Below are positions 1 through 26,258 of a DNA stretch of 64,000 bases, in pieces. The stretch lies in IMG/VR virus record IMGVR_UViG_3300027377_000018, one strand, 5' to 3'. Both the position numbers and the translations under genes were made by a program. The stretch is from a virus. The notes beneath the pieces were generated by a model. The model worked only from the letters and a program-made list of their open reading frames with translations. It made no database searches and had not been told where the DNA came from. Position 1 is the stretch's first letter. Each line of letters starts with the position of its first letter.

Positions 1-202
1 GCACGCCAAAGAATCAACGACTGGAGGATCGACTACAATGAGGATCGGCCGCACTCGGCGCTCGGAAACTTGACGCCGGGCGCCTATGCGGCCCAACTGA
101 AACCAGCCCGAAAGGTCGCATGAAGCCCGGACCAAAGACGGGGCGAAGACCAGCAGACCACGGACTAACCTAAAACTTGGTACGACGCATGGGGGCGGGT
201 CA
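1..202 (+). mobile_element. IS3-family insertion sequence, right end (transposase OrfB C-terminus 1-123 plus terminal inverted repeat)
   Basis: Frame 1 reads [26 protein letters not shown] (rve_3-type YNxxRPHSAL motif). The element ends ...GGGGGCGGGTCA at 202, the canonical IS3 CA terminus. Confidence 0.85.
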
Positions 203-327
203 CAATTATGCAGGCATTCAATGCCGTGTTGCAGGAGGCCGACCCTCAGATCGAGGAAAAAGAAATCGAGGTGATCTCCCCGGAGCTTGCGAAACAGGTT
301 TTAGCCGAACTCGTACAGCTTGAGTGA
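203..327 (+). pseudogene. C-terminal remnant of a gene interrupted by the IS3 element
   Basis: Open frame directly after the IS end (MQAFNAVLQEADPQIEEKEIEVISPELAKQVLAELVQLE*), co-oriented with the downstream operon. Confidence 0.55.
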
Positions 328-384
328 TCGTGTGCTGTAAGCGCCCCGAGCTTTTGACGATATACGAACCGACTGAAAGACGAC

Positions 385-876
385 ATGCAAAGGACTGACT
401 TTCTTGAACTCAAATATGGCGCGGGAATGGTTATAGAACCTTTCCTTAGGCGCCTGTTTGCAGAAATGAACCCCAAAACGGTCTATTGGGTCTCTCCCTG
501 GCTTACGCATATCAATTTCAGAACTGCCACAACGAAAAAGCTGCTGCAGAAGCTCCAGTTGCAGGGCGTCAATCTAGTGGTGATCACCCGCGAACCGGAG
601 GCGGGAAGCGGGCATGAAGAGTTTGTCCGGGACGTCAAGGAAATGCCCACTGCATCGATCTTCTACATGCCCACGCTTCACGCAAAATTCTATGTGGCAG
701 AGACGAAAGAACGCCGCTATGCGCTTCTCGGTTCGGCGAACATGTATGAATGGTCCAACCGATCGTACGAGCTGGGGGTGGTTATTGAGGCCCGTGGCGA
801 AGGAGAGGTCCTGATAGACAAGCTGGAGTCACTTGCGATCGACCTCCGGGTTACACAGCACACAACCAGAGCATAG
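385..876 (+). CDS. Phospholipase D-family (HKD) nuclease-like protein, single domain
   Basis: LHAKFYVAE...LLGSANM matches HxK(x4)D/E...GSxN. Stand-alone 163 aa. Confidence 0.8.
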   Translation: MQRTDFLELKYGAGMVIEPFLRRLFAEMNPKTVYWVSPWLTHINFRTATTKKLLQKLQLQGVNLVVITREPEAGSGHEEFVRDVKEMPTASIFYMPTLHAKFYVAETKERRYALLGSANMYEWSNRSYELGVVIEARGEGEVLIDKLESLAIDLRVTQHTTRA

Positions 877-887
877 GAGACGAAACG

Positions 888-2063
888 ATGGCCGCGCCAC
901 TGAACAAAAGGTTCTGTCTAAAGGGTGACAGAAAAAACTTCACGATCAACTTCCGAATCAATCACGAGGATCGTGCAGCGTATTTCGGTAAGAGGAAAAT
1001 AAACGAAAAAATTATCGAAGATATACGTGAACGCTACATGATGGGTAATCAGCCCAAGAAGTATCTCTACGGACAATATGGCGTCGGGAAAACGCATACC
1101 TTGTTCAACATCAAGTACAAACTTGAAGAAAGCCCCGAGGCGAAGGCCATCACGGATTACCAAGTCAAATGCTGTTTCATAGATGCCGAATTCAAGGAGA
1201 AAACGAACCACAACTATCTCCACGCGCAAATGATGGAAGCACTAACCCTCGAAAAGATACGAGAGGTCATTGACAAATATCTCGCCAAAAACGCGGGGCC
1301 AGCGCTCGAGGACAAACTCAGAGACGACTTCGGCGATGCAAACATAACCAGAGCGATTCGAGCTCTCGGTTACGCCGGAGAGCCGGTTACTTTGTGGAAA
1401 TGGCTATGCGGTGGGTCGCTGACAGCAGCGGAACTCACCTCTTACAACCTTACAAAAAATATGGACACGATCTCCGAGATGTACCGCGTTCTGGTGGGGA
1501 TAATGCGGCTCTTCGTCAACAAAGGTATCTATTACCTGTTCCTGCTCGACGAAATGGAAGGGCTGACAAACGTCCGCAACTAGGATTGTCGGGAGTCATT
1601 TCACGATGCCTTCAGGCGGCTTGCTGACGATGACAACAGCGTCGTTGGCTTCATTGTCTCCATCTATGCCATGCAGGAAGAGGACATCCCAGATTTTGTG
1701 TTCAGGGAGGATATCAAGACCCGTCTGAATAAAGCGAACATTCATCATCTTGAATACCTCGCTCACGACGACGATATGCGGCAGTTCTTGAATGATCTTT
1801 TCGAACTGGTGGTTGACGATGACAAGAAGAAGGAAAGAGAGAAAGAGGGGAAAATACCGAACGGGATGAAATATTTTCCACTGACCGATGAAGCGATGGA
1901 AGAGCTGGTTAACCTGGCGATAAGCGCGCCCACTGCGAGCCTACCCCGCAATTTCATATCGGCTCTCAATGAAGGGGCTGTCCACGCCGCACGCCGCGAT
2001 TCTTACGTCATCGACACGCAAGACCTGACACCGGCGCAAGCGATATTCACGGAAGGCTTTTGA
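888..2063 (+). pseudogene. P-loop (AAA+/BrxD-like) ATPase with in-frame TAG at 1581-1583
   Basis: Walker A GQYGVGKT and Walker B FLLDEME. ORFs 888-1583 and 1671-2063 share a frame, and the gap reads open after the TAG (DCRESFHDAFRRLADDDNSVVGFIVSIYAM). Confidence 0.8.
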
Positions 2064-2086
2064 GCGACGATTGACTGGAGAGACAG

Positions 2087-3481
2087 ATGCTTCGCTACAA
2101 CGTATCGCCCAGGCTTCGGGACCAGGACGGAACAATCTGCCTTGGTTGCGACGCGGCGGATATGCAAAAGGTCACGCACGTCAATCTCGGACGGTTGAGC
2201 GAGCAGGGTTCGCGCCCGAATGTCGTTCTGGGGTTTGCGCGCGAAGTTGTGACGGGCATCTTTGGACAGCGCGGGTCCGGCAAGTCCTACACACTTGGAA
2301 CCATCATAGAGGGTTTGGGGACAACGGATGCCGACGCGAATATCGGCTGCAACATGAACGACCGCGCCGTCTTGCTGCTGGATACCCTGAACATCTATCA
2401 GTATGCAGCGGTCCCGGTTTCCAAGATCCCCGATGAGACATTGCGAAAGGCACTGTCGTCAAAGATCACAGGATTTGGAATTAAAGAAACAGAGATTTCA
2501 GTCAGGACATACTATCCGGAGGGGCGACGGCAAAGTTTCTATACGTCCAGATACGAACCTTTCGGATTGGACACCTCGCTAATTCGGGCCGAAGACTACG
2601 CGCACGTATTTGAGATCGACCTCTTCAAGGACCCGACGGGTCATCTCCTTCTGGCGGCATTCGACGGGGTCAAGAACACCGGCTACACATACAATTCGGC
2701 GGCTCGCGCAGGTAAAGAGGAAGCGGGCCTCTCGGAGCTGATCGAATACCTCTCCGATGAATCCAATACCGCCGGCAGTTTCGAACGTACGACGGTCAGG
2801 GCGCTGCGCAGCCGCCTTCAAAGCCTGGAGCGGGACGAACTGTTCTCATCGACGCCGACTTCGGTGTCGTCGATGGTCAAGGCCGGAGAGGTCACAATTC
2901 TCTTGCTCGGGCATCTCGCCCCTCCGATGCGCAGTCTGACGGCCGCGATTCTGGTCAGGCAGTTGTTCAATCTGCGGTCCGCAGCGTCGGAAGCAAACAA
3001 GACACTGAAGCTGGACAGCACCATCTCGGACGATGAACGCGCTGCTGCGTTGCGAACGATAGAGGCCTCTCCGCCGCGCACATTGCTCTGCATCGACGAA
3101 GCCCAGGGCTACGCCCCGCCCTCAAGAGCCAATCCGTGTACCTCCATACTGATCCAATATGTGAAGGAAGGCAGGAACCACGGCCTGTCGCTGATGATCA
3201 CGTCCCAGCAACCGAGCGCCATTCACCCGGAGATACTGTCGCAGGTGGATTGCGTTGTCGCGCACCGGCTGACGGTTCAATCGGATATCGACGCCGTGAT
3301 GCGCAGCGCCAAAGGGCGATCTCCGGAGAAGATGACCAGTGGTACCCAGACACTAACGGTTCATGACCTGCTCAGGGAACTCGCGCAGGGGCAGGCTTTT
3401 GTCAGCCACGGTGACACGACACGTGCATTTGTAACCGAAATCCGCCCGAGAGTGACCGCTCACGGTGGGATCGAGGGGTAG
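2087..3481 (+). CDS. HerA/FtsK-like (DUF87) ATPase
   Basis: IFGQRGSGKS Walker A, LCIDEAQ Walker B, KEGRNHGLSLMITSQQPSAI arginine-finger/Q-motif region typical of the HerA clade. Confidence 0.85.
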   Translation: MLRYNVSPRLRDQDGTICLGCDAADMQKVTHVNLGRLSEQGSRPNVVLGFAREVVTGIFGQRGSGKSYTLGTIIEGLGTTDADANIGCNMNDRAVLLLDTLNIYQYAAVPVSKIPDETLRKALSSKITGFGIKETEISVRTYYPEGRRQSFYTSRYEPFGLDTSLIRAEDYAHVFEIDLFKDPTGHLLLAAFDGVKNTGYTYNSAARAGKEEAGLSELIEYLSDESNTAGSFERTTVRALRSRLQSLERDELFSSTPTSVSSMVKAGEVTILLLGHLAPPMRSLTAAILVRQLFNLRSAASEANKTLKLDSTISDDERAAALRTIEASPPRTLLCIDEAQGYAPPSRANPCTSILIQYVKEGRNHGLSLMITSQQPSAIHPEILSQVDCVVAHRLTVQSDIDAVMRSAKGRSPEKMTSGTQTLTVHDLLRELAQGQAFVSHGDTTRAFVTEIRPRVTAHGGIEG

Positions 3482-3485
3482 TGAA

Positions 3486-4679
3486 TTGAGAGTAGCTCTC
3501 ACATTCCGTCTGTACATGATGCGATACGGGATTGCCCTTCTGGCGTCGTCGTTCACGAACCAAGGCCGAACGACATTCTCTGAGGACATTTGCAAGAAAG
3601 TATCGGGCTACCTTACGGAAAAACGCGAGGTGCCGGAGGATGACCTAGCGCCATTCAAGGAATACCTGTTTAACAAGCCGGGGTCACCGCGGTACACCCC
3701 GCTCCGGCAGGCCTTGGAAAAAGGACAATCGATCAAGGCGGAGCGCCAGGACCTCCTACTGTCCGAACCCAGACTGCCGTCTTCCGTCGGTGCGCTGACG
3801 CAGGATTACTTCGATGATGCGCTATCTCTAGCGCATATGTTGAAACTGGTGAAAAAAGAGCAGAACCTTCTTTTGGCGAGAGGGCGCCTGAGCTTGTCCA
3901 CCGGCTGGCAAACGGACGATCCGTTCTGGCTTCGTCAAAAGGACAGTTTGTATCTCGGGCTCTGGCTGCTGGATGTCGATTGCGACTGGCTATGGGCATT
4001 TCTTGCGCAGCTTCCGTCCGATCCCGAGTTCGAGATAACTGTCGAAAATCGAGTCAACCTCCTCCTGAAAAGCTGGAAGCACGTGTTGTCTGCCCGGCAG
4101 ATTCGATCCGGGCATCCGCAAAACGCAAAGGTACGTACCCGGCTCAACGAGTTGATAAAGATCACCGAGCGGAACGTCCGCGAAAAGCTAAATCTCGGAC
4201 AGCCTTGGTCATGGTTCCTGATTCCGCGTCTCGAACTCTTGGTGGACGCCGGAATTCTCGCGAAGAAGGAACGACATGGCCTGACAGGATACAGCCTCAC
4301 TACTGCGGGCCGTAAAATGCGCGCCGTCTGCGGCGCGGATGAAAGCGGAGAAGTTCTGATTCAAAACTATTTCTCTTGTCGGGATACGGGGGATCGTCCG
4401 GTTGACGACAGAATCGATTGGGAAGACATTCAGAGCAGGTTGGAAACGATTGCCCCCGACCTTAAGACATCAGTGGGCTATTTCCCGATATTCGAAACCG
4501 CTTCGGCACTATGTGTCTCCCAGTTCGTGGACGCGACATGCACCGAAGAACCAGTTTGGGAGGTCGAAGCCGTCAAGGAACGGTTGTGGGAAGAATCGAA
4601 ATCAGCTTCGCCGAGGGTAAGGCTGGCGATTGACCGGCACGGACAAATCTACGCGTTCAAGGTGGAGGAAGTAAGGTGA
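3486..4679 (+). CDS. Hypothetical protein (~397 aa), last gene of the PLD-ATPase-HerA operon
   Basis: Long ORF immediately after HerA. TTG start at 3486 preceded by GAGGGG. Possible winged-helix segment (LIPRLELLVDAGIL...GYSLTTAG). Confidence 0.7.
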   Translation: MRVALTFRLYMMRYGIALLASSFTNQGRTTFSEDICKKVSGYLTEKREVPEDDLAPFKEYLFNKPGSPRYTPLRQALEKGQSIKAERQDLLLSEPRLPSSVGALTQDYFDDALSLAHMLKLVKKEQNLLLARGRLSLSTGWQTDDPFWLRQKDSLYLGLWLLDVDCDWLWAFLAQLPSDPEFEITVENRVNLLLKSWKHVLSARQIRSGHPQNAKVRTRLNELIKITERNVREKLNLGQPWSWFLIPRLELLVDAGILAKKERHGLTGYSLTTAGRKMRAVCGADESGEVLIQNYFSCRDTGDRPVDDRIDWEDIQSRLETIAPDLKTSVGYFPIFETASALCVSQFVDATCTEEPVWEVEAVKERLWEESKSASPRVRLAIDRHGQIYAFKVEEVR

Positions 4680-4740
4680 ACGGACGAATTTGAAAGTTGC
4701 CCTTGCCGTGCCGACGCGATAGTCGGGGCCAGCCGATATG

Positions 4741-5580
4741 CTATTTGTGGCACGCGAGACAGACTTTTGCTTTGCCGTACAAGTCGTCGATATCCAGGGG
4801 CTCGCTGTCCGACCTGAGCGGGTTAGGCTGAACCTTCGACATCATGCGCGCGAGCCGTTGCTCGTGATCCTCCCTGATCTGCGCGACGCGCTCGGGCTGT
4901 TCCAGCTCTTCGAGAGATTCGCCCTGGCTCCAGGTGAACGGTGAGCCGTGTTCCACGGCATCCTTCTCGTACGCTTTGGCTTCCTCGAAGGCTTCGGGGT
5001 GCTGCTCCTTGAGCCGCACCCACTCGATCTTCTGCTGAAAGAAACAAAAGGTGCAGCCGCTGCGCGTCCGCCACTCGTAGTATTTCGGGAGGCCGAGCCC
5101 TGCGCCTTCCAGGATGTCGAGGACGCCGGGCTTGTCAATTCCGGCGTCCTTGAACGGCAGCCTGACGATCAGCTTGTCATGTTTCGAGGAATACCCTTCC
5201 CGGTATTCTTCGTCACTGCGGATCGCAACATAGCTGTAAACCGTCTTACCGTCGTCGAGCATCGGGCGAAGCCAGCGCTCGAACGGGCGCAGCTTGAGTT
5301 GCCGTGTGCACCATCGCGTTTGCGGCGACGGCAGGAAATCATTGTACTGCTTGAGCCAGAAGTCGAAGTCGCGGTCGGGATTCAGCCGCAGTATCGGCTG
5401 TCCGAGAAAGCCTTCCAGCCGCCCGAGATATTCATAGACTTCGGGCAGCTCCTTGCCGGTATCCGTGAAGAAGTATTCGATTTCAAGCTCGGGATGATGC
5501 TGACGCATATACACGGCAAGGGCCGCGCTATCGCGGCCCCCGGAAAGACCGAGCACATGTTTCACGGAATCGTTCGTCAA
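4741..5580 (-). CDS. sspD: PAPS-reductase-family protein, SspD-like (DNA phosphorothioation)
   Basis: PP-loop LGLSGGRDS, RWCTRQLK, RSGCTFC and C-terminal CLACH; in an operon with an ATPase and DUF4007. Confidence 0.75.
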   Translation of the reverse strand: MTNDSVKHVLGLSGGRDSAALAVYMRQHHPELEIEYFFTDTGKELPEVYEYLGRLEGFLGQPILRLNPDRDFDFWLKQYNDFLPSPQTRWCTRQLKLRPFERWLRPMLDDGKTVYSYVAIRSDEEYREGYSSKHDKLIVRLPFKDAGIDKPGVLDILEGAGLGLPKYYEWRTRSGCTFCFFQQKIEWVRLKEQHPEAFEEAKAYEKDAVEHGSPFTWSQGESLEELEQPERVAQIREDHEQRLARMMSKVQPNPLRSDSEPLDIDDLYGKAKVCLACHK

Positions 5581-8500
5581 GTGGCAACCTTTCCTTTCCC
5601 GTTCTTCTTGGATGGTGCGGTGTTCTGCATATAGCGCGCACTCAGTTCCGCCAGCGCCGCAAGAATGATGCTGCGGCGCGTGGTGTCGGATTCATCGAGC
5701 GCCGCTTCGACACGGTCAATGAGTGCGTTCACGGTCGCACGGTCCGAATCCGCGATGTCGAATTCCTCAAGCAGCGGCGTAGGCCGCCCGTTTGTGCCGA
5801 TGACAACGGCCATGGCGTGACGCTTGTCGGGCCGACCTTTCACGCGTGCATAGGTCTCAGCACGAAGGAATTTCTGAGCCATGTCGGCGATTTCGATCGC
5901 GGCTTGGTCGAGATCGGGATCGACCCAGTCGCGCGGCGGCTTGTTCGCCGCGAGGCTTGCAATCCCCTCGAAACTTTCATCCGAGCCGTCAAACCGGACT
6001 AACCTGCCGACGAAGGCGTCGAGCCGGAAGTCGCCGGCAAGCTGCCTTATATTCTCGGCACGCTCGCGCAGCTCCGCGAGAGACTGAGGAGAGATATTAG
6101 AAACCTGCAACTCGGCCAGCATCAGGTCGCGCATGCGGTGCAGCATAGACGGATAAGCCTGCAACAGCTCTTCGAGTCCTTCGCGAACACTCTCGATAAG
6201 CCGGCGCAGGTCGGCATCAGTGTCGAGGGCTACATCCTCACCCAGGGTTCCTGGAATATCGTCGAACAGGAACCGGTTCGGATCATGCGCGCGCTTGAAG
6301 AGATCGCGAATACGCGCGGCGTTGGCGGACAGTCTCATCGTTCGCGTGGTCCATTGCGGCAAGTGCTCAAAAATGGACATCAGTCCGCGACCGACATCTA
6401 TGGGCTCGAGATGCACAAGCTCGTTGCTCGCATCGAGGTCCCGAACCACCTCTGCCATGTAGGACAGCAGGCGCCGCGCCATGCCGGACAGGTCCATCCA
6501 GCGTAACTGGATGATGGCTGCGTCCTTGGCGAGATAATCGGCATCGACGTCGTCGAACCGAACCCTGAATATACCCTCGCGATAGACGGCAAGCTTGTTG
6601 CGCTGCGCCTGGATAAAGGCGACCGCCAAAAGCGGCATCAAGCCGTCTTTGATGCCGAATGGGGGTTGGCGCCAGAGCTCGAAGAGTTCCGAGATCGTGA
6701 CGGCCCGATCAGCATTATACCTTACATAGTCGAATGCGGCCTGCCACATGGGAGCGAGACGACATGGATCGTCGCCTTCCGCGGGCGAGACAAACCGAAA
6801 CGTATTACCCTGCGGGACGTAAAGTTCCGTCTTTTCCAGGATCGAGGCGAAGAGCCCGCCTTCAGCCGGAAAGCCGTCAATGCCGAGCCGTGCTTCGCCT
6901 TCGTTAACCACCATGCTATGCAGCAACTTGTTCTGCGCCATTATGGCGCTTCCCGACGGCTTCTGCCGGTTAAGAAGTTCGTTGTGGAGCCGTGGGGATT
7001 GCGGAAAACGGCGATCTGCCAGCTCGGAGGCGATGCCGTTCAGATCGGCTTGGTGCAACCGCTTCTTACTGTAGTTCTTGCGAAACCACAGGGCATTGTC
7101 GAACGCTTTTTGCAGCTCGGTTTCCAGAAGCGCCTGCAACGCAGCGAGACGGGCGGAAACCTCCCGTCGGGCGACCGAGTCCCCGGCGAGTTCGGGGTGA
7201 TCGTTGCTGACGTTTTCCAGCGCGATCAGCTCGCGGGCGAGCGGCACGACGGCCCACGACTGTTTGGAAATGCCGACGACGATATCGCCTTTGTCCTCGC
7301 CGCTGTGACGAGCGGCCTTTTGGCACAGCTTCTCTGCGTGCTCCGCCTTTTCCCTTTCGGTCGGGATCGCGAGCAGGAACTGTCCGATCGCGCCGTTCTC
7401 CGGCTCAAATCCGGCGGCGAATTCGACAATGCCGCTTACGGGCACAATGTTCACATCAAACCACCGCATGGCGCCTGTTTCGTGGTAGTGGCGCTTGGCG
7501 AGGATGGGCTGAAGACCGGCAAGCGATTTCAGGTGCTCGAAGTCTATGTCGCCGATCTCGTCGAGCGCCGACCGAACCGCCTGTTCGATATCGAAGTCGC
7601 TCCCGGCGAAAATGGCGCGAGCGTCAAGAAATTTCTTGAAGATCGTGAGCGACCAGCCATCCAGATCCGAAAGCGCCTTCTCTATTGCCGTTTGCAGCGT
7701 GTCGGGGAAACAGGGCCGCAACAACTCGTAATTCGGAAGGAGTCCCGAACGCTCCTTGAACAGGTCGATGACGGCAATTGTCTTAAGCAACCTGACATGC
7801 AGCGCATCGCCGCCCAGGGATTCGCAGCGTTCCAGCGCTTCGGCTGCCAGCGCCCAGCGGTGGCCGTCGGGCGAAGCCAGTATGGACGGCTCCAGATTGG
7901 CGCGCAGGTAATCCCACAACCGGTCGGGTCCGTACAGTTCTCCATCCTTTGCATGGCTCAGGAAATCCTGGAAACCGTGCAATTCCGATGAATTGAGGAA
8001 GCCGAAGATACTGCGCTGGTTCTGTCCAAATCGCCGGCGCGAAATGGGACCGAGCAACGCAGCAACAACCGGGTGCAGGGGCCAGCAGGCCTCAAGCATC
8101 GAAGCTAGTCGCGTGGCATCCTCTCGGGGACGGTCTCGACGCGCGAATGCGGCCACGGAAGCCGCAAGAGTGCCCGGCTTCTTCGCGACATGATCGCTCT
8201 CTATTGCGCGGGCGATCAGATCGATCTGTTCTTCACCCGCCGTATCCACGACGAGGTCGATGAACCGGCCCTGTATCTTCGCCCATTCGTCCCTCATGTC
8301 ATGTGAGAGCCGATGTGCATATTCCTCGAATGCCTGGTGCAGCACGCCGACGATCAGAAGACGCCCGCCACTGCGAGAAGCCGCCTCTGCGAGTTGCTGG
8401 AGGATGTAGATATCCGAGCCATCCTGTGCGGCAGCTTCGAGGAACTTGCCCATCTCGTCGATGAAGAGGACAAGCCCGCCGTGCGTCTTCGGCTTGGCTG

Positions 8501-8975
8501 TAGCGGCATCGGAAAGCGCCTCTATCAGGTTGCTCTCGGTCCAGCCGCCGCGTGGCAGTCGCTGCACAAGCCCCGTTCGTTTGGCAGCTTCGCCGATGAC
8601 CGCTACGGGATCGTCGCACCTCCCGACGACGGGAAGAATACGCCATCCCTTCGTACCGGTCGGCAGGGCTTTCCAAATAGTGTTCGTCAGGCTTTGCCCG
8701 AATACTCTGAAGGCGTGCTTCTGCAAACCGGCGTCGCCGTTCAGAAGAGCGGCGAGTGCAACGACAAGGCTGGATTTACCGCTACCGTATGGGCCGGTCC
8801 ATGTGAATGCACCCTGTCCGGTTTCGGACACGTGCCGCGCCATCGCGGCGAGAACTTCCGCCGAGGATTGCGGACATACAAAACCGTCAAGGGCACTGGC
8901 GTCCCCAAGGTCGGTGTCAATGCGGACCGATCTCAGGAAGCGGCGGGCAATGCGGACGTGGTCTTTCAGAGACAT
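5577..8975 (-). CDS. sspC: Large P-loop ATPase, SspC-like
   Basis: TGPYGSGKS Walker A, LFIDEMGKFLE Walker B, LHQAF and WAKIQGRF motifs. 1132 aa, lying between DUF4007 and the PAPS reductase. Confidence 0.7.
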   Translation of the reverse strand: MSLKDHVRIARRFLRSVRIDTDLGDASALDGFVCPQSSAEVLAAMARHVSETGQGAFTWTGPYGSGKSSLVVALAALLNGDAGLQKHAFRVFGQSLTNTIWKALPTGTKGWRILPVVGRCDDPVAVIGEAAKRTGLVQRLPRGGWTESNLIEALSDAATAKPKTHGGLVLFIDEMGKFLEAAAQDGSDIYILQQLAEAASRSGGRLLIVGVLHQAFEEYAHRLSHDMRDEWAKIQGRFIDLVVDTAGEEQIDLIARAIESDHVAKKPGTLAASVAAFARRDRPREDATRLASMLEACWPLHPVVAALLGPISRRRFGQNQRSIFGFLNSSELHGFQDFLSHAKDGELYGPDRLWDYLRANLEPSILASPDGHRWALAAEALERCESLGGDALHVRLLKTIAVIDLFKERSGLLPNYELLRPCFPDTLQTAIEKALSDLDGWSLTIFKKFLDARAIFAGSDFDIEQAVRSALDEIGDIDFEHLKSLAGLQPILAKRHYHETGAMRWFDVNIVPVSGIVEFAAGFEPENGAIGQFLLAIPTEREKAEHAEKLCQKAARHSGEDKGDIVVGISKQSWAVVPLARELIALENVSNDHPELAGDSVARREVSARLAALQALLETELQKAFDNALWFRKNYSKKRLHQADLNGIASELADRRFPQSPRLHNELLNRQKPSGSAIMAQNKLLHSMVVNEGEARLGIDGFPAEGGLFASILEKTELYVPQGNTFRFVSPAEGDDPCRLAPMWQAAFDYVRYNADRAVTISELFELWRQPPFGIKDGLMPLLAVAFIQAQRNKLAVYREGIFRVRFDDVDADYLAKDAAIIQLRWMDLSGMARRLLSYMAEVVRDLDASNELVHLEPIDVGRGLMSIFEHLPQWTTRTMRLSANAARIRDLFKRAHDPNRFLFDDIPGTLGEDVALDTDADLRRLIESVREGLEELLQAYPSMLHRMRDLMLAELQVSNISPQSLAELRERAENIRQLAGDFRLDAFVGRLVRFDGSDESFEGIASLAANKPPRDWVDPDLDQAAIEIADMAQKFLRAETYARVKGRPDKRHAMAVVIGTNGRPTPLLEEFDIADSDRATVNALIDRVEAALDESDTTRRSIILAALAELSARYMQNTAPSKKNGKGKVAT

Positions 8976-9934
8976 CAGGCGGCCTCCTTCCCGGCGCGCG
9001 AAGCGTAGTCGCTGGGCAGCCAGGAAAGGGCCGTCCCTTCGCCGATCTCGATGTTACGCACAACCTGCTTGAGGCCGGCAGTTTCCGACCACCGGAGAGC
9101 GCCCCCCGTTACATCGTCAAGTGAGGCGAGGCGGTCGGCCACATCGTTCTCGTCGAATTGAAATACGCGCCCGGGACTGCCCGGCGCGTGGGCGACCGCC
9201 TCGAAGGACAGCGTGGCGGCGTTGGGAAAGAAGCGAGCCCAGAAATCTACGAGGGCGTAGGCGAAAATGCCGTCTCCCAGAGTCGATTTCGGGCCACGCA
9301 CGAAGCGAAAGCCATCGTTCTTTCCTATGGCCCTTATGAGCCCCAATTCGGTGAGCGGCGATTCCAGGGCATCGTCGTGTCCGGTCTTGCCGGATGGTTG
9401 CCGCGCGACATAGGTGCGAATGAAACAGGCCACGTCATTCTTGAGCGTGGTCTGCGCAACCCGCGACCATCCGCGCTCATTCGCAAGGCGGTCGAGCTTT
9501 CGGATCAGGCTCTCACGTTCAAACGTAATGGCGGGATAATGGCTGAATGCCCAGAACCACGTGGTTCTTTCGGGTAGGGCTGCGAACTGCCAGTGCAGCA
9601 GCCACAAGGTGGCAGGATACTCCATCCACGGATCGAGTCCGCCTGCGCCGAATAGCAACCGGCCGAGTGTGGTCGTTTCGACCACGTTAGTGGCGGGTTC
9701 CCGGATGATGCGGGCCGCCTTCGCCCAATAGCGTATCGAGCTGACCATGTTCTTGCCGACGCCGAATCGCGCTATGGCATCGTCGTCCCAACACGCGACG
9801 CGGTTGTTGGCATCGGGCTCCGTCTCGGCGATGCGGTCGAACGCTTTTTTCAGCCACCCGTAGCGCAGCGGGAAGGTTTCGTGTCCCGAAAACTGCGGGC
9901 TGTAATCATTCTGAAAAAGCGGTCCGCGCGCCAT
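8975..9934 (-). CDS. sspB: DUF4007 protein, SspB-like
   Basis: FSGHETFPLRYGWLKK, FGVGKNMVSSIRYW, DPWMEYPATLWLLHW and LESPLTELGLI are DUF4007 signatures. Confidence 0.8.
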   Translation of the reverse strand: MARGPLFQNDYSPQFSGHETFPLRYGWLKKAFDRIAETEPDANNRVACWDDDAIARFGVGKNMVSSIRYWAKAARIIREPATNVVETTTLGRLLFGAGGLDPWMEYPATLWLLHWQFAALPERTTWFWAFSHYPAITFERESLIRKLDRLANERGWSRVAQTTLKNDVACFIRTYVARQPSGKTGHDDALESPLTELGLIRAIGKNDGFRFVRGPKSTLGDGIFAYALVDFWARFFPNAATLSFEAVAHAPGSPGRVFQFDENDVADRLASLDDVTGGALRWSETAGLKQVVRNIEIGEGTALSWLPSDYASRAGKEAA

Positions 9935-10088: not shown

Positions 10089-11277
10089 ATGAAAATTGGA
10101 AACACGATATATCTCGACCATCAGGCGACCACGCCGGTAGATTTGCGTGTTCTTGCCGAAATGACGCCGTATTTCACCGAATCGTTCGGCAATCCGCATT
10201 CCGCCGATCACGCCCTCGGATGGGAAACATCGCGCGCCGTGGATGAGGCCGCCGCCCGAGTCGCGCGGTTGATCGGTGCGGACTCTGATGAAATCATCTT
10301 CACCTCGGGGGCAACGGAGTCCAACAACCTCGCCCTGTTGGGCCTTGCACGCCGTGCAGCTGGCGGCGAGCGTTGTCGTGTGCTGGTTGGCGCTGCCGAG
10401 CATAAATGCGTTCTGGCGGCCGGGCGTGCGCTCGAAGATCATCATGGTTTCAAAGTCGAGCGCCCTTCCGGTCAATTCGGAAGGTTTTGTGGAAACATCA
10501 ACACTTGAAGACTCGCTGGATGACGATGTTTTTCTTGTATCGATCATGGCTGTGAATAACGAGATCGGTACGATACAAGAAATAGAAAGTCTTTCGCGAA
10601 TCGTGAAGAGCTACGGAGCTTTGTTTCATTGCGATGCGGCGCAAGCTCCGGTCGCAATAGATTTGGGTTCTTTTGCAGAATACGTCGATACTATCAGTCT
10701 TTCGGCACACAAGATGTACGGACCAAAGGGAATCGGAGCCGTCTACGTCGCACGGGAACTGCAAGACCGGATCGAGCCGCTGATCTACGGCGGCGGCCAG
10801 CAGAACGGCTTGCGGTCGGGCACTGTGCCCGTCCCGCTCTGCGTCGGCATGGGAGCGGCGGCAGACATGTTGGCCGACGAAGCGGCGGACGAACAGCGAA
10901 AGGAATTGGGCAGCAAAAGAGACAGGTTCGTTGCCGGGCTGAATCGTCTTGTATGGCCGATCACGGTGAACGGCCCGGAAGGAAAAGCCCGGCATCCCGG
11001 CAATGCGAATATCCGGTTCACCGGGTTCGCAGCCCACGACATCATGGCTACCTTGCAGCCACACCTCGCGGCCTCGACCGGCTCGGCCTGCACAACGGGC
11101 ATACCGGAACCGTCGCATGTCCTTAAGGCCATCGGACTGACCAGCGATGAGGCCGAATCCTCGATCCGCTTCAGTCCCGGTTTCGCCACAAGCGATGATG
11201 ACATCGATGAAGCTGTGAACCGGATCAAAGAGGTGTTGGAGAAACTTTCGAAGGCCGAGTTGACGCGATCGGCCTGA
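10089..11277 (+). pseudogene. sspA: Cysteine desulfurase (IscS/DndA/SspA-like), +1 frameshift at ~10463-10465
   Basis: YLDHQATTP, FTSGATESNN and EHKCV in frame 1; MAVNNEIG, HCDAAQ, SAHKMYGPKG and STGSAC in frame 2. Removing one C from CCC at 10463-10465 gives a 395 aa ORF. Confidence 0.85.
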
Positions 11278-11987
11278 AGCGGTGCAGCCTGACGGCACCG
11301 GGGCGTTTATCGCCGGCGGTGCGGAAACGACGCGTGGCAGGTTTGAATGCCCCCAAGGCAACTGCGGCGTTAAAATACAAGACCGCATGGGGAGGACGCA
11401 TGGCGATCTCGAAAAACACGAAAAGCCAAATCGAGGCGGTTGCCGACAATACGTTAAGCACATTTGACGCAGTGGCTGACGCAGCCCGAACGCATCTGAG
11501 CGGCGCTGCGTCATCAACCGGCGCTGAAGCCTTTGCCAGCATCAACACTTTCACGTCCACAGACACTCTGCGATCCCAGGAAAAGATCTACCGGGAAAAT
11601 GTGGAGAGCTATCGTTTGCTCACGCATGAGCCGGCGATAGCGCGTGTCGCCGTATGCGACGAAGACGGCAAGAAGCTTGTCTATTACATCTGCCGAACAG
11701 CTCCGGTTCCGGTTGGCGACAAGGATGTAAGACTGGCGAGCTACAGGTCTCCAGTCGGGCGGCTAGCCGCCTTGTCCGTCGGTGATGAATTCACGGCCCG
11801 CATGGACGGTCAAAATGTTTCTGTGGAGATATTGGAGAAAGCACAGCTCCACCCGGCTTTGGTCGAGCAAGAGTGGGATTCCCGCAATACTGTGCTGGAA
11901 GGTGCTGATTACGGCTTCATTACGGTCGAGTCGTTTAGAGCCCTCCTTGGTCGCGGGGTTGCGGCAGAGCCCGACGCCACGCTCTTA

Positions 11988-12918
11988 GAGTCCGATTCAA
12001 AAGTTCATGTGAGATAACAGCATGTTATGAGTCTTCTGGTCACGAGTCTGATGCTGGCGATGTTGACCCATGCGATGGCGGTTTCGGTGGACTTCTCCCA
12101 ATCCTTTGCGAGCCTGCGGCATCGGTTGAGCCAGGCGAATGTGCGCTCGACCACCCACCGCCGGGGCAAGACCTCGAAGCCTCTTGCGTTCTCGGGGCGT
12201 TTGACGATCTCTACCGTCCAGTCGCCAAGCCTGTCCAGCGCATCGCATAGTTTTGGCCCGGCGTAGCCGCCATCGGCGAAGACATGACGCAGCCAGGGAA
12301 ACCGGTAACGGATGGCTTTGATGGGGCTTGGCGCGCCATCACGGTCCTGGATATCGGCGGCATGGACGATGACGAACAGCATCAAGCCGAGCGTATCGGT
12401 GATGATGTGACGTTTGCGCCCCTTGATCTTCTTGCCGGCGTCATAGCCCCGAATGCCGCCGCTTTCCGTGGTTTTCACACTCTGAGTGTCGATCACGCCC
12501 GCCGTCGGTTGAGCCTCGCGCCCCTCCAGCTCGCGAGTGGCCGCCACCAGAATGTGGTTGATCGTCTGCCAAAGCCCGCTGTCACGCCAGGCATAGAAAT
12601 AGCCGCGCACCGGGGAGACCGGCGGGAAGTCCTTCGGCAGCATCCGCCACGGTGTCCCACCGCCGGCCATATAGAGGATGGCGTTCATCACTTCGCGCAT
12701 GTCCGTCGTGCGAGGTCGGCCGCCCGTCTTCGCCGGAGGAATGAGCGGCGCCAACAACGCCCATTCCTCGTCCGTCAAATCGCTTGGATAGCGCAGACCG
12801 TCCCGGTCATGCTGTCGGCGAGTGACATCATTCCAGGGCATGCATTCCTCCATACCTTCTGAAAAGACGGTTGAATCACATCCCATTGATATCACTCAAC
12901 TACTTTTAAATCAGGCTC
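11988..12918 (-). mobile_element. IS5 family (IS1031-like) element, 931 bp, copy 1
   Basis: Imperfect IRs GAGTCCGATTCAAAAG / CTTTTAAATCAGGCTC; TTA target duplication at 11985-11987 and 12919-12921. Confidence 0.92.
12005..12841 (-). CDS. IS5-family transposase
   Basis: YPSDLTDEEW, GVIDTQSVK, GKKIKGRKRH, FADGGY and RWVVERTFAWL motifs. Likely ATG at 12841 after GGAGGA. Confidence 0.93.
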   Translation of the reverse strand: MPWNDVTRRQHDRDGLRYPSDLTDEEWALLAPLIPPAKTGGRPRTTDMREVMNAILYMAGGGTPWRMLPKDFPPVSPVRGYFYAWRDSGLWQTINHILVAATRELEGREAQPTAGVIDTQSVKTTESGGIRGYDAGKKIKGRKRHIITDTLGLMLFVIVHAADIQDRDGAPSPIKAIRYRFPWLRHVFADGGYAGPKLCDALDRLGDWTVEIVKRPENARGFEVLPRRWVVERTFAWLNRCRRLAKDWEKSTETAIAWVNIASIRLVTRRLITCCYLT

Positions 12919-15059
12919 TTAGAGCGGCAACTGGAAGAGGAACAGGAGTCCGCCAACCTTCTGGAGGGTCGGCGCCGCAGTGTCATCGAAAAGATGGGGT
13001 TGCGCGACCAACCGGTGCTCGACCGTTATCAGGATGAAATATTTCGTCTCCCGCTCAATAGCCGCCTTTTGATTCTCGGTGCCCCCGGAACCGGGAAAAC
13101 GACAACCTTGATCCGGCGTTTGGGACAAAAGCTCGACTTGGACGCATTGGATGAGAGCGAACAAAGGCTCGTTGATCGCTCCTCCGACGGCAGCGGCGTA
13201 GAACATGGGAAAAGCTGGATTATGTTCACGCCCACAGAGCTTCTGAGGCACTACGTCAAGGACGCGTTTGCGCGCGAGGACATAGCGGCACCGGACGAGC
13301 GCATCTGCACATGGGCCGATTTCCGCCGCCAGTTGGCCAGACGTGAATTCAGTGTACTCCGTTCATCTTCAGGTAGCGGGACGTTTGTTATGCGTGAACA
13401 CATACAAACGCTCTTGCCGGAGACGATAAGCGATCAGACCTCCTGGTTTTCGGACTTCGACAACTGGCAGAAGGCCTATTTTTGGCAAGAACTGCGCGAT
13501 ACAGCCGAACGCCTGTCCGGAGAGCCGAGGAAAGCGATTTCGACGCTCGGTGACCGCATCCTGTCTCTGATAGATGAAGGAGGCAAGGAACCGTCGGCGA
13601 CAGTACTTGTGGCGCTACAGCGGCTTGTTGCCGATATCCAGGCCCAGCTCTCCGAACTGAAGGCGGCCACGGACGAACGAATTCGCCGGTCGCTCAATCT
13701 CCAGGTCAACCGTGACCAGAATTTTCTGGACGAGCTGGCGAAATTCTTGGACAGCCTCGCGGATGTTGGTGATGATCCCGATGACTCGGAGTTGGACGAA
13801 GAGGAAGAGGCGGCACCTCCCAAGACGAGAAGAGCCGGCGCCGCCGCGGCATATGCAAGGGCCGCGCGATCTCAGGCGCGGAGTACGGCAACAAGGCGGA
13901 GCATCGGAGAAGCGACACGGTCAGGGCGCCTGATCGACTGGCTTGGGAACCGGCTTCCAGGCGAGGAAGACCGTCTCGAAGTTGGTCAAAGTCTGGTGGT
14001 GCAATCGCAATTGAGGCGGTTCGTCAATCCGGTTCGACGGTATATCGATGGCGTACCGTCACGATATCGACGCTTTCGGCGTGCACATCAGAATGAGAAG
14101 AAGTGGTATCTTCCCGACGGATACGCGGCGACGGATATTCACCCGCTCGAAGTCGATTTAGTTCTGCTGGCCCTATTGCGTGGAGCGGATGAGCTGGTCG
14201 ACAAGATTCGGCCCGCGAGCGGAGAAGATGCAGAAGAGAATCCGATGCTGGCGCGCCAACGCCAGCTCTATCGAAATCAGGTCCTGGTGGACGAGGCGAC
14301 CGATTTCTCGCCGTTGCAACTTGGCTGCATGGCGGCACTTACGCCCCCCGGTATCCGGTCGTTCTTCGCTTGTGGTGATTTCAACCAGCGCGTCACAAAC
14401 TGGGGCACCCGCTCGATGGAAGAGATGCAGTGGGTTCTGCCGGAAATTGCAGCCAAATCCGTCGCGGTGGCATACCGCCAAAGCACACAGCCTCATGAGC
14501 TGGCAAAGCAAATTGTGGTTCAGACCGGTGGCGACGCAACCGATGTCGTATTGCCGGGGTTCGTCGACAATGAAGGCGTCGCGCCGGTTCTGGCGACAAA
14601 CCTCTCGCAACAGGACGATGTAGTGGATTGGTTGGCGGGGCGTATCGTTGAGATTGAGAATTTTGTCCAACAACTGCCCTCCATTGCTGTCCTCGTAAAC
14701 GACGAACGGGACGTGACACCGCTTGCGACGGCCTTGGGCGAAGCGTTGGAGGAACAGAATATCCGCGTTCTGGCCTGTCCGAATGGCCAGGTGATGGGAT
14801 TGGAGAGCGATGTGAGGGTATTCGATGTCCAGCACATTAAAGGGCTGGAGTTCGAAGCCGTCTTTTTTGTCGGTGTCGATCGGCTCGCGCAAACATACCC
14901 CGACTTGTTCGACAAGTATTTGTATGTCGGCGCAACACGTGCAGCCACATACCTGGGGCTCACGTGCGAACAGCAGCTTCCGGAAAGCATCGCTGAATTG
15001 GCGCATCTGTTTGAGGAAAACTGGGAGTAGGTTCCCGGCCGCATCCACTCGACTATTGA

Positions 15060-16216: not shown

Positions 16217-17518
16217 TCAGGCGTCGCGCCGCATCGGACCATCGATGGCGACGGCGACTTTGCCCGTGAGCATCCAGAGGGCGCCCGTGAGCATGGCGAG
16301 GTTGTAGGTGAAGCTGTTGTCGCAGCCGCGACGCCAGTACTCGCCCTCGAGATACATGCAGGCACCCTTGCAGAGCTGGACGACGGGACAGCGCCGGCAT
16401 TCCTCGCGCAGCGACCAGTGTGTCGCTGTCGTCAGGCGAACCTCGTCTAGGGCCTCGACGTGCCCGATCCGATGGGCGGCATCGCCGGTGTTCTGGCAGG
16501 TGTAGACGTTGCCCTTGAGGTCGACAGCAATGTTGTCGTCCCGGTCCATGCCGCACTTCTGGCCAAGCGTCGAAGCGGGCCGGGCCTGGGCCAGGGAATT
16601 GAACCAGTCCTGAAGCTTCATCCAGACGGTGGAGACGGCGAGTGCGCTGCCGTCCATGATCTCACCGAGGAGCGCCAGCCGGATCTGCTTGTGCTCCTCG
16701 TCCGTCGCCGGCGAGAGCATGAGCCCGCCCGGATCGTAGGGCAGCAGAAGCTCTTCGCTGCCGACCACAACGGATTGGTCGCCCATCGTTTCAACGAACC
16801 ACTCGCGTGCCGCAGCGAGGCTATAGTGGTCTCGGGTCAGGACCACATTGAACGAGACCTTGCCCTTGGGGTGCAGGCGGGCGAACAGTGCTCGTATCGC
16901 CGCTGCCTTATCCGGGTCGTCGAACGGATCGGGTCCGCGCAGGGCCTGGCCGGGCCCGTCGTGGGAGACCGCGACGGCGAAATCCAGGCGATCGACCCAA
17001 TCAATCCTTTCTTCGTCGAGCACTGATCCGTTGGTGATGACGGAGAGCTCTGCGTTCGGCCACCGGGTCTTTATGCCCTCGGCCAAGGGTTTCAGCTTCT
17101 TCCAGTAAACGAAGGGTTCTCCACCCCAGAATTGGACATTGGTGCCAGCGCCCTTGCCATCCCTGCCGCCATCCCACCAGGAACCCAGATTGGCAAGGAA
17201 CCGGCTGACATCGCCGAGGTCGGTCAGTTTCTCTTGCCCGACCTGGCTCGCCTGACCGCAATAGGCACAGGAGTAATTGCAGCGAAACCCCAGCGAGACC
17301 TTGAGCTTTCGAACGCTGTGCGTCTTTCGGCCGGGCTGGTCGGGGCTCACGGCCGTCGCCGTGTCCCACGCCCTTTCCTCGTCCGCATAAACGAAACCGG
17401 CCGGGGAGAGATCCACCGGCCGGCCGTCTTCGTGGGTCAGGAGGGACGCGTGCGGGTCATAAAGGAGCCGCTCGGTCGAGCCATCGGGTCCTTGCAGCGT
17501 GATGGTGTAGATTGGCAA
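16217..17518 (-). CDS. Radical SAM/SPASM-domain protein (rSAM-2)
   Basis: CNYSCAYC (CxxxCxxC), FWGGEP, ITNGS, and C-terminal CGM...YTCQ...CRRCPVVQLCKGAC...C. TTG start 17518 after AAGGAG. Confidence 0.92.
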   Translation of the reverse strand: MPIYTITLQGPDGSTERLLYDPHASLLTHEDGRPVDLSPAGFVYADEERAWDTATAVSPDQPGRKTHSVRKLKVSLGFRCNYSCAYCGQASQVGQEKLTDLGDVSRFLANLGSWWDGGRDGKGAGTNVQFWGGEPFVYWKKLKPLAEGIKTRWPNAELSVITNGSVLDEERIDWVDRLDFAVAVSHDGPGQALRGPDPFDDPDKAAAIRALFARLHPKGKVSFNVVLTRDHYSLAAAREWFVETMGDQSVVVGSEELLLPYDPGGLMLSPATDEEHKQIRLALLGEIMDGSALAVSTVWMKLQDWFNSLAQARPASTLGQKCGMDRDDNIAVDLKGNVYTCQNTGDAAHRIGHVEALDEVRLTTATHWSLREECRRCPVVQLCKGACMYLEGEYWRRGCDNSFTYNLAMLTGALWMLTGKVAVAIDGPMRRDA

Positions 17519-18509
17519 TGGATGCTCCTTCTTGTTCGGCGATCCAGGCGAATAGCTCGTGCTTGGCCTTGGCGAGCCGGCAATCGACATCGTGGGTCTG
17601 CGATAGGTGACAGTTGCCGCGGCATCAGCGGTTGATGGGGCAGCCCCGGCATTCGGCGGTATCGACGAACCGGCGAACGTGCCTTAGCGCCGCTGCGGTC
17701 TCGGGCGTTTCCGGCTCCGACTGGAACAGGTGGCCGGTCCGCAGGCTCCGGCGGACCGAGTGGTGGCAGCCATAACGATTGCCGGCGAGATCGACCGATA
17801 CGTGGTCGTCGGCGTGGCATAGGGGCGCCGGCGACCGGGAGGGCGCGCCGAGGGCTTTCCGCCATTTCGTGAGATGGCCTTCGAACATGCCGTGGGCATA
17901 GCGGTGGCCATCGAGACGAAGGCGGGCGAGTTCGCGAAGATGCGGCACGTGGCGATCGAGATCAGCGTGGGTCAGGTAGTAGGCGGGATCACAGCCCTCC
18001 GTTGCCCGTACCCAGTGCACATAGGGAAAGAACGGTCGCCCGAAACGTTGCTCCAGCCGGTCGAGGTCCCCGAACCACGGCCAGGCGAACAGATTCTGGT
18101 GCGTGAACAGGAACGAGACCGCCGAGTTCTGCAACCTCGCCACCTGGTCCCATCTCGGCTCGCCGAACGGTTGATGCCGGCTCACCACCACGTAGGCATC
18201 CCAGCGATTGAGGGCTTCGACGTGCCGATCCTCGAGCAGGCTACCGTTCGTCACCAGCTTGACGAAGGTGAGCGGAACGCCGGCCGCAATGAGCGCCTCG
18301 TGGATCGCCTCGATGGCCTCCCAATAGAGCAGCGGCTCCCCGCCCCAATAGGCGACCTCGGTGATGCCCTTCGCCTTCATGTAGGGAACGACCCGGTCGA
18401 CAAAGTCCTCGACCGGGTGCCGGCGCCTCTCCGCGTCGCCGCCCTTGGGGTCCTGGAGACAATAGGCGCAGCGGAAGTTGCAGGCATAGCCGAGAAAGAT
18501 GTTGAGCAC
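17457..18509 (-). pseudogene. Radical SAM/SPASM-domain protein (rSAM-1) with in-frame TGA at 17625-17627
   Basis: CNFRCAYC, YWGGEP, VTNGS. The SPASM motif reads CRGCPINR*CRGNC...C and the frame stays open to 17457. Confidence 0.85.
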
Positions 18510-25864: not shown

Positions 25865-26258
25865 GGCGATAGAGTCCCAGGACACGACGGCGCCACTTGG
25901 CGCCGTCATAAGGTTCAAGACAGGCGTCGATGCCGTCCTCGATGTGCAGCATCCATCCGATGGCAACGACGACGCCCACATGCATGGGCTGGTTCATGAG
26001 GCGCATGAGAACCACATCACCTGGCCGCTCCGCGCCGGGCGGCACCGGATGCCACGGGCCCATCTCGCCCCGGATCAGACGGCCGATATCCTTGGCGTCC
26101 TCGACGGAGGCATAACCGTCGGCGTAGGACGGCAGCCGCCTTCCGAATTGATCGGCGAGCACGAGCCGGACGAGGCCCCAGCAATCGACGCCTTCCCGGT
26201 CGCGGCCATGCGCCTTGAACGGCAGGCCGACATAGGCGTTCACCCAACTGGGCAACAT
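25854..26258 (-). CDS. NlpC/P60 tail assembly protein (gpK-like)
   Basis: GVDCWGLVRLV and HVGVV...MLH catalytic C/H. Confidence 0.88.
   Translation of the reverse strand: MLPSWVNAYVGLPFKAHGRDREGVDCWGLVRLVLADQFGRRLPSYADGYASVEDAKDIGRLIRGEMGPWHPVPPGAERPGDVVLMRLMNQPMHVGVVVAIGWMLHIEDGIDACLEPYDGAKWRRRVLGLYRHDG

Follow-up and report, generated by a model that had tools for sequence, protein, structure and literature searches.

We analysed a 64,000-nucleotide stretch of viral DNA (IMG/VR record IMGVR_UViG_3300027377_000018; hereafter the window, meaning the whole stretch), in which a cassette of nuclease and ATPase genes lies beside the phosphorothioate (PT) modification genes sspD, sspC and sspB. 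The cassette is a compact operon on the + strand at 205-4679 and converges on an intact sspD-sspC-sspB set, with a stop-to-stop gap of 61 nt (4680-4740) between the gene of protein E and sspD. It consists of five genes, encoding an AAA+ ATPase (A), a phospholipase D (PLD) nuclease with a single HKD motif, a second AAA+ ATPase (C), a HerA/FtsK ATPase (D) and protein E. The features of the locus are as follows.

1-204, + strand: 3' end of an insertion sequence (IS) element; transposase C-terminus (last 40 residues) at 1-120, stop codon at 121-123 (rve_3, E 3e-10).
205-326, + strand: remnant of ATPase A, last 40 codons (tblastn against a 376-aa protein of the relative L001).
385-876, + strand: PLD (HKD) nuclease, 163 aa (PLDc_2, 28.4 bits).
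888-2063, + strand: ATPase C, 391 codons with an in-frame TAG at 1581-1583 (weak BrxC_BrxD, BrxD, ORC and Cdc6 matches).
2087-3481, + strand: HerA/FtsK-class ATPase D, 464 aa (DUF87 at 1.3e-9).
3465 or 3486 (alternative start) to 4679, + strand: protein E, 397-404 aa (no family match).
4741-5580, - strand: sspD, sulfurtransferase of the phosphoadenosine phosphosulfate (PAPS) reductase type, intact (PADLOC SspD 8e-139, full length).
5577-8975, - strand: sspC, BrxC-like ATPase, 1132 aa, intact (PADLOC SspC E 0, 1336 bits).
8975-9934, - strand: sspB (DUF4007), intact (DUF4007 1.5e-84; PADLOC SspB 1.6e-106).
10089-11277, + strand: sspA (cysteine desulfurase), divergent from sspB, with a +1 frameshift at ~10464 (tblastn).

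A sequence-only reading of the window had reported this gene set, and all of its genes were found where it had placed them; its 61-nt stop spacing was obtained again on re-measurement. It had described an operon of four genes preceded by a remnant cut by an IS element. The cut by the IS element stood, whereas the true count is five genes, the remnant at 205-326 being that of ATPase A, a paralogue of ATPase C. The stand-alone HKD nuclease, the BrxD-like ATPase, the HerA/DUF87 ATPase at 2087-3481 and the protein of ~397 aa without a known family were recovered as well, on the profile matches given below, and the in-frame TAG in the BrxD-like gene is new, as is the frameshift seen in sspA.

The junction with the IS element was located by comparison with an intact metagenomic relative (L001). 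The IS terminus reads ...GGGTCACA at ~204 and occurs only once in the window. From position 205 on, the window DNA shows 82% identity to positions 6746-11218 of L001, and this similarity starts exactly at 205, inside the first gene of the L001 operon, so that 205-326 represents only the last 40 codons of a gene of ~376 aa. Insertion of the IS element cut off ATPase A, and all but these 40 codons were lost. The promoter of the cassette was presumably removed along with the 5' part of gene A; a promoter and terminator scan of window positions 1-5000 returned no sigma-70-like site, and no convincing terminator within the 61-nt gap.

The PLD protein matched PLDc_2 at 28.4 bits, above the cut-off of 27, and gave weak matches to ZacB, DrmC and DpdK. 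Residues H99, K101, G116, S117, N119 and E129 were invariant in 11 homologues, including those from loci without ssp genes, and the HxK...GSxN...E catalytic motif of PLD/HKD nucleases of the Nuc/BfiI type is present. A single HKD motif is characteristic of nucleases acting as dimers, such as Nuc and BfiI.

Three ATPases accompany the nuclease. By tblastn, the remnant of ATPase A aligned at 67% identity with residues 337-376 of its 376-aa counterpart in L001, and intact open reading frames (ORFs) of 356-389 aa were present in seven relatives (L001, L002, L003, L007, L010, L011 and L013). ATPase A is an ORC/Cdc6-type AAA+ protein and a distant paralogue of ATPase C, with weak matches to AAA_22 and BrxC_BrxD, and its Walker A (GxGKTH) and Walker B (DE) motifs are invariant among relatives, as are Walker A and Walker B of ATPase C. 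An AlphaFold2 model of an intact ATPase C homologue (pLDDT 90) matched ORC/Cdc6-type structures with a Foldseek probability of 1.0. Its best match was archaeal ORC2 (Z 18.4, 273 residues aligned, rmsd 4.0), with Cdc6/Orc1 structures at Z 17.8 and 16.0, and TnsC and BrxC came after the ORC/Cdc6 structures in the fold ranking. As modelled, ATPase C is a stand-alone ORC/Cdc6-clade AAA+ protein, a description that has likewise been given to BrxD (PMC12839542). ATPase D matched DUF87 above the cut-off (1.3e-9), PADLOC mad8 (1.3e-19) and the PADLOC HerA models (1e-16 to 1e-9), and matched the NCBIfam HerA models far below their cut-offs. The translation shows a Walker A motif, GQRGSGKS, and a Walker B motif, CIDEAQ, and ATPase D is presumed to be a DNA translocase.

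Protein E had no match in Pfam, NCBIfam or PADLOC, and a profile built on it found none among the sequences of the PDB. A profile search for the family itself collected 194 representatives, and the family comprised 112 homologous clusters at 40-95% identity, none of them annotated. A shape search of the ESM Atlas returned only the family's own unannotated clusters, and tblastn with protein E across 72,556 plasmids found none. The AlphaFold2 model of the protein was of good quality (pLDDT 85, pTM 0.87), and a Foldseek search of the PDB with it was empty at E <= 0.001. With VIA-align, the best match was the FokI recognition domain (Z 8.3, 197 residues aligned, rmsd 5.9), followed by N.BspD6I (Z 7.6), the BpuJI recognition domain (Z 7.1) and BrxA (Z 6.7); Z values of ~8 are moderate, and the tool warns of common arrangements at such values. 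Every third of the protein resembles ordinary winged helices, the last third being of the ORC/Cdc6 type (residues 309-397, Z 6-7). On this model, protein E is likely a multi-winged-helix DNA reader or DNA-binding subunit. Alignment of protein E with SspB by hhalign gave a probability of 1%. The sole stretch that hhalign aligned joins an invariant KPGSPRY motif of protein E (residues 64-70) to an invariant PGSPG of SspB (~252-256); the shared PGSP is probably due to chance, though both proteins are winged helix-turn-helix (wHTH) DNA binders of one locus.

The linkage of the cassette to ssp was determined in 12 close loci, namely the window, L001 (identical to L009), L002, L003, L006, L007, L008, L010-L013 and a JGI contig for which gene calls but no DNA were available. 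In all 12, the ssp genes (DUF4007, SspC and PAPS reductase) lie directly beside the cassette that carries the close homologue of protein E, which bears out the co-occurrence with DUF4007, ATPase and PAPS reductase genes that the sequence-only reading had proposed as a check. The close family spans six or more phyla, and its named hosts are metagenome-assembled genomes (MAGs) of Rhodothermales, Nitrospirales, Latescibacterota, Alpha- and Gammaproteobacteria and Planctomycetes. Two clades were distinguished. Clade I has the five genes A-PLD-C-D-E, which are convergent with sspDCB in the window, L001, L006, L007 and L010 and lie on the same strand downstream of sspBCD in L002. Clade II (L003, L011, L013 and the JGI contig) has the seven genes A-PLD-C-D-E-F-G, always on the same strand after sspBCD and beginning ~80-150 nt past sspD. 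Genes F (~130-200 aa) and G (~226-294 aa) had no Pfam or PADLOC match and are absent from the clade of the window; they were located at 11326-12410 in L003, 11179-12392 in L013 and ~11197-12389 in L011, and downstream of E or A in L014-L017. In L001, a 142-aa gene without a family match lies between gene E and sspD (11280-11708) and is missing from the window.

The identities between loci differed greatly between the two gene sets. L007 shares 88% identity with the window in D and 79% in E, and only 29% in SspC; for L013 the values were 57% in D and 39% in SspC. By sequence comparison, the cassette and the ssp genes have no shared history. The high D and E identities against the low SspC identities in L007 and L013 indicate that the cassette recombined beside differing SspBCD lineages more than once, and this repeated placement beside ssp argues for selection on the pairing of the two.

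These data lead us to the reading that we regard as probable, that the cassette encodes a restriction module of several subunits, driven by ATP, for which the PT marks made by SspABCD serve as the label of "self", and hence a third partner of SspBCD, non-homologous to SspE and SspFGH. The state of the two gene sets across the loci fits a pair of the restriction-modification (R-M) kind. Both sets were intact in seven loci, and on the JGI contig the gene calls cover the entire cassette, just the start of ssp being cut off by the end of the contig. In L008 and L012, cassette and ssp were both fragmented. The region 7062-17660 of L008, a Latescibacterota MAG, is rearranged, with a truncated PLD gene, ATPase C in three frames and, as ssp remains, two copies of sspD, several sspC fragments and half an sspB. 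At 1377-4560 of L012, a fragment of sspB abuts the PLD gene, sspC, sspD and gene A are deleted, and an internal deletion joins genes C and D.

Several observations weigh against the restriction-module reading. What points to a dependence of the cassette on PT is its linkage to ssp. The family is rare (6 of ~185,000 species-representative genomes) and known from metagenome assemblies only, so that the frameshift in sspA and even the TAG in gene C could be assembly errors. The fold matches of protein E are of the moderate kind noted above, and its comparison with SspB by hhalign was negative. Furthermore, whole-cassette relatives exist without ssp. Many distant relatives of protein E (~415 aa) gave full-length profile matches at E 1e-26 to 1e-5, and on three long contigs (L015, L016 and L017) such distant cassettes are ordered PLD-C-D-E-A-F-G, with no ssp gene within 10 kb in any of the three. 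Homologous C, D and A were found by tblastn in all three contigs and a homologous PLD gene in L015 and L016; the PLD gene was undetected by tblastn in L017. The machinery is thus not intrinsically bound to phosphorothioation, and PT is evidently dispensable for its function or, at the least, for its persistence.

The neighbours of the ssp-free cassettes include XRE-type regulators, R-M genes, an integrase and NYN and RmuC genes, a setting resembling a defence island, and the proteins of these cassettes matched no specific PADLOC system. A divergent XRE-type helix-turn-helix regulator (HTH_3/HTH_19/HTH_31) precedes the cassette at 6243-6725 (- strand) in L015 and at 6309-6764 (- strand) in L017, and such a regulator is missing from the ssp-linked cassettes. 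The ssp-linked cassette thus represents a single branch of a larger seven-gene family without a name.

The cassette could also be a self-contained HerA/FtsK, ORC/Cdc6 and PLD defence system that is blind to PT and shares its location with sspBCD through defence islands or mobile DNA. The distant relatives, which have the same genes plus F and G, do stand alone, and the movement of the cassette among very different SspBCD lineages is what an autonomous unit might show. However, the cassette adjoins ssp directly in all 12 loci, which span six or more phyla and two gene orders, and this goes far beyond loose clustering in islands; the clade II cassettes follow sspD on its own strand at a distance of ~80-150 nt, and tblastn found neither SspE nor SspFGH as an alternative partner in the close loci. 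We therefore consider the PT-blind explanation rather unlikely, though a serious contender. Tentatively, the two sets of relatives may be brought together in one history, in which a seven-gene autonomous machine existed, made up of a PLD nuclease, two ORC/Cdc6 ATPases, a HerA/FtsK motor, a FokI-like DNA reader and two proteins without assigned function; one of its branches would then have been taken over by SspBCD as a restriction arm, have lost two genes and have been exchanged among unrelated SspBCD lineages across phyla. We hold this history to be slightly less likely than not.

A role in modification or DNA repair was weighed as well, in which the cassette would aid the loading of SspBCD or the processing of PT-related nicks. 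SspB is a wHTH nickase partner of the ORC/Cdc6-type ATPase SspC, and additional proteins of these kinds could assist them (PMC10853773). On the other hand, SspABCD alone is enough for PT modification in E. coli (PMC8092258), most sspBCD loci lack the cassette, ssp-free relatives of the cassette exist, and a HerA/FtsK motor combined with an HKD nuclease that is conserved and looks active is typical of effectors. An auxiliary role of this kind seems to us highly improbable.

To compare the cassette with the known restriction partners of PT systems, the profiles of SspF, SspG and SspH (14 PADLOC models, PDLC02793-02806) were used, with SspFGH of Methylibium petroleiphilum plasmid RPME01 (L005) as the positive control. 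The control proteins SspF, SspG and SspH scored 6.5e-227, 1.1e-207 and 0 on these models, whereas none of the models was matched, at E values up to 0.01-0.1, by the window proteins or by the intact homologues of ATPases A and C. BLASTP and hhalign against Methylibium SspF, SspG and SspH gave nothing past the P-loop. A tblastn search with Methylibium SspE, SspF, SspG and SspH was empty both across the 64-kb window and in the related loci, and the same search with Methylibium SspB, SspC and SspD found every ssp-linked locus. SspE consists of an N-terminal DUF262 and a C-terminal DUF1524 (HNH-type) domain, and neither is present in the cassette proteins. No window protein matched the PADLOC models of DndF, DndG or DndH; the sole Dnd match was a weak one to DndH (1.6e-5), which covered no more than the ATPase core of a distant D homologue. 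The lack of a DUF262/DUF1524 gene remarked on in the sequence-only reading was thus upheld, both in the cassette proteins and by the empty tblastn search with the DUF262 protein SspE over the 64-kb window, and the PADLOC scan which it had recommended yielded no SspE, SspFGH or DndFGH match in the window proteins while the Methylibium control was positive. Of its proposal of an alternative, phosphorothioate-sensing module apart from SspE, SspFGH, DndFGH and Pbe, the distinctness held, and for the sensing of phosphorothioate the evidence is linkage.

SspFGH of Vibrio anguillarum FF-93 (PMC8092258) is nonetheless similar to the cassette in its general arrangement. Both are multi-gene modules beside sspBCD, both combine a Walker A ATPase, an unannotated protein and an FtsK/HerA-class ATPase, and by analogy the cassette too would be expected to attack DNA lacking PT. 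SspFGH and DndFGH damage such DNA, and both are toxic when the modification genes are missing (PMC8092258). The cassette might on these grounds be taken for a highly divergent or split SspF, SspG and SspH, that is, for the known SspABCD-SspFGH system, since SspF has a Walker A motif, the C-terminus of SspH is FtsK-like and SspG is unannotated (PMC8092258), and the SspH C-terminus and protein D both match PADLOC mad8. The protein sizes differ, however. The SspF, SspG and SspH genes are ~1.8, 1.5 and 5.3 kb long (PMC8092258, Table S2), corresponding to ~610, 500 and 1760-1800 aa, compared to 376, 163, 391, 464 and 397 aa in the cassette, which therefore has five small proteins and not three large ones. 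It also has a separate single-HKD PLD nuclease and two ORC/Cdc6-type ATPases, while SspFGH has neither a separate PLD protein nor a second ORC-type ATPase, and with none of the 14 SspF/G/H models matched and nothing aligned past the P-loop there is no sequence or profile similarity between them. We give this identification very little credence.

DndFGH offers a second comparison. It likewise joins a P-loop NTPase, the triple winged-helix binder DndG, a nuclease and a HerA/FtsK translocase (PMC10853773), and DndG has the FokI domain and SspB among its relatives (PMC10853773). In contrast, DndH combines the nuclease with the HerA/FtsK domain, whereas in the cassette these parts are separate and the nuclease is of the PLD type and not of the restriction endonuclease (REase) type; DndF is kinase-like while the cassette ATPases are of the ORC/Cdc6 type, and DndFGH pairs with dnd genes while the cassette pairs with ssp genes. 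Among the Pbe proteins, PbeA is an HKD nuclease fused to a superfamily 2 (SF2) helicase, PbeC a CxC-type ABC ATPase and PbeD a DndE-like protein (PMC10853773). By Pfam, the cassette differs from PbeABCD in these features, its PLD protein being of 163 aa without a helicase, and no ABC ATPase or DndE-like ribbon-helix-helix protein being found.

The domain logic of the cassette had been anticipated in the ORC/Cdc6-HerA/FtsK "capture systems" predicted computationally by Rakesh, Aravind and Krishnan in 2024 (PMC10853773), who list DndFGH and the capture systems as combining an NTPase, a FokI-type multi-wHTH binder, a HerA/FtsK motor and a nuclease (PMC10853773). The ORC/Cdc6-type ATPase of such systems has its counterpart in the ATPase C model (Z 18.4) and the HerA/FtsK ATPase of the operon in ATPase D. 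For the FokI/SspB/DndG-type wHTH component, the top three matches of protein E (Z 8.3-7.1) are moderate and its hhalign comparison with SspB is negative. Capture systems are also described with an active REase and with an inactive REase inserted in the ORC/Cdc6 protein, while the one recognised nuclease of the cassette is of the HKD/PLD type; no REase-like match was found for ATPase C in the fold search, where a small insert could escape a fold list. In the text consulted on capture systems and BREX-related capture (BRC) systems (PMC10853773, PMC12839542), no link of either to sspBCD is described. BRC systems have PglZ, DUF6079, a STAND NTPase, GNAT and TGT (PMC12839542), none of which is in the cassette.

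Some resemblance to bacteriophage exclusion (BREX) was also noted. ATPases A and C gave weak BrxC_BrxD or BrxD matches, the ATPase C model resembles BrxC, protein E resembles BrxA (Z 6.7), and SspC itself is BrxC-like. These BrxD and BrxC matches are below or only marginally above the curated cut-offs, and there is no PglZ, PglX or BrxL. BRC and BREX type 4 were rejected because the locus lacks PglZ, BrxL, a STAND NTPase, GNAT and TGT. MADS was rejected because only mad8, a generic profile of HerA/FtsK-like ATPases, was matched and none of mad1-7. No description of the cassette was found in the searchable literature, which covered papers outside subscription-only access, or in PADLOC 2.0, Pfam and NCBIfam.

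The copy in the window is damaged on one side of the pair. ATPase C is a single frame with one stop, TAG at codon 232, where relatives carry Gln or another residue. With gene A removed by the IS element and the TAG in gene C, the window cassette is probably inactivated and most likely a relic. The restriction side has been struck twice (IS and TAG) while sspBCD is whole, and loss of restriction with modification kept is the order of loss expected if the restriction part is toxic without modification. In sspA, tblastn gave residues 1-124 and 126-390 of L001 SspA in two frames, a CCC run at ~10464 being one base longer than in L001 and L006; this frameshift could be a sequencing or assembly error.

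Beyond sspA, the window contains a 232-aa ORF without a family match (11319-12017, + strand) and, just past sspA, a second transposase of the IS4/IS5 type (DDE_Tnp_1 with DUF4096; 12005-12895, - strand), so that the ssp and cassette locus is flanked by IS elements on both sides. In L001, sspA is followed by a 297-aa gene, to which the 232-aa ORF may be related. Further on, at 12994-15030, 16217-18509 and 21800-25981, are a UvrD-like helicase, two radical SAM genes and a 1393-aa GpJ-like phage tail or tip attachment protein (FNIII-A_GpJ, Phage-tail_3). These genes suggest a prophage or gene-transfer-agent region near the locus.

For the restriction-module reading, the parts could act together in the following manner. 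Protein E, with its FokI-like winged-helix array and its C-terminal ORC-type winged helix, would bind DNA and read a site or its PT state. ATPases A and C, as paralogous ORC/Cdc6-type AAA+ proteins, would assemble on DNA as a loader or scaffold, and E together with A and C would thereby recognise the DNA and load on it. ATPase D, the HerA/FtsK protein, would move the DNA, and the single-HKD PLD protein, presumably a homodimer, would nick or cut DNA without PT, cutting being prevented by the PT marks from SspABCD. We infer every one of these steps from domains, linkage and analogy to SspFGH and DndFGH; by that analogy, the division of labour would be the same as in DndFGH, spread over five small proteins.

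It was reported that 84% of sspBCD loci have neither SspE nor SspFGH, and further partners were predicted (Wang et al. 2021, PMC8092258). Such loci may be orphan epigenetic systems or may have partners that were not recognised, and the cassette is a concrete candidate for a third partner. What is probably new is the use of a non-homologous restriction arm in a restriction-modification system based on PT, while the capture class itself had already been predicted. If the reading is true, the cassette would for the first time open the ORC/Cdc6-HerA/FtsK capture systems, known hitherto from computational prediction only, to functional study. The presence of the same machinery with and without ssp provides a natural comparison of how a nuclease-motor complex comes to depend on a mark in the DNA backbone and, should the capture of a pre-existing autonomous effector be true, it would mean that PT marks can be added to such an effector as its signal of self and non-self.

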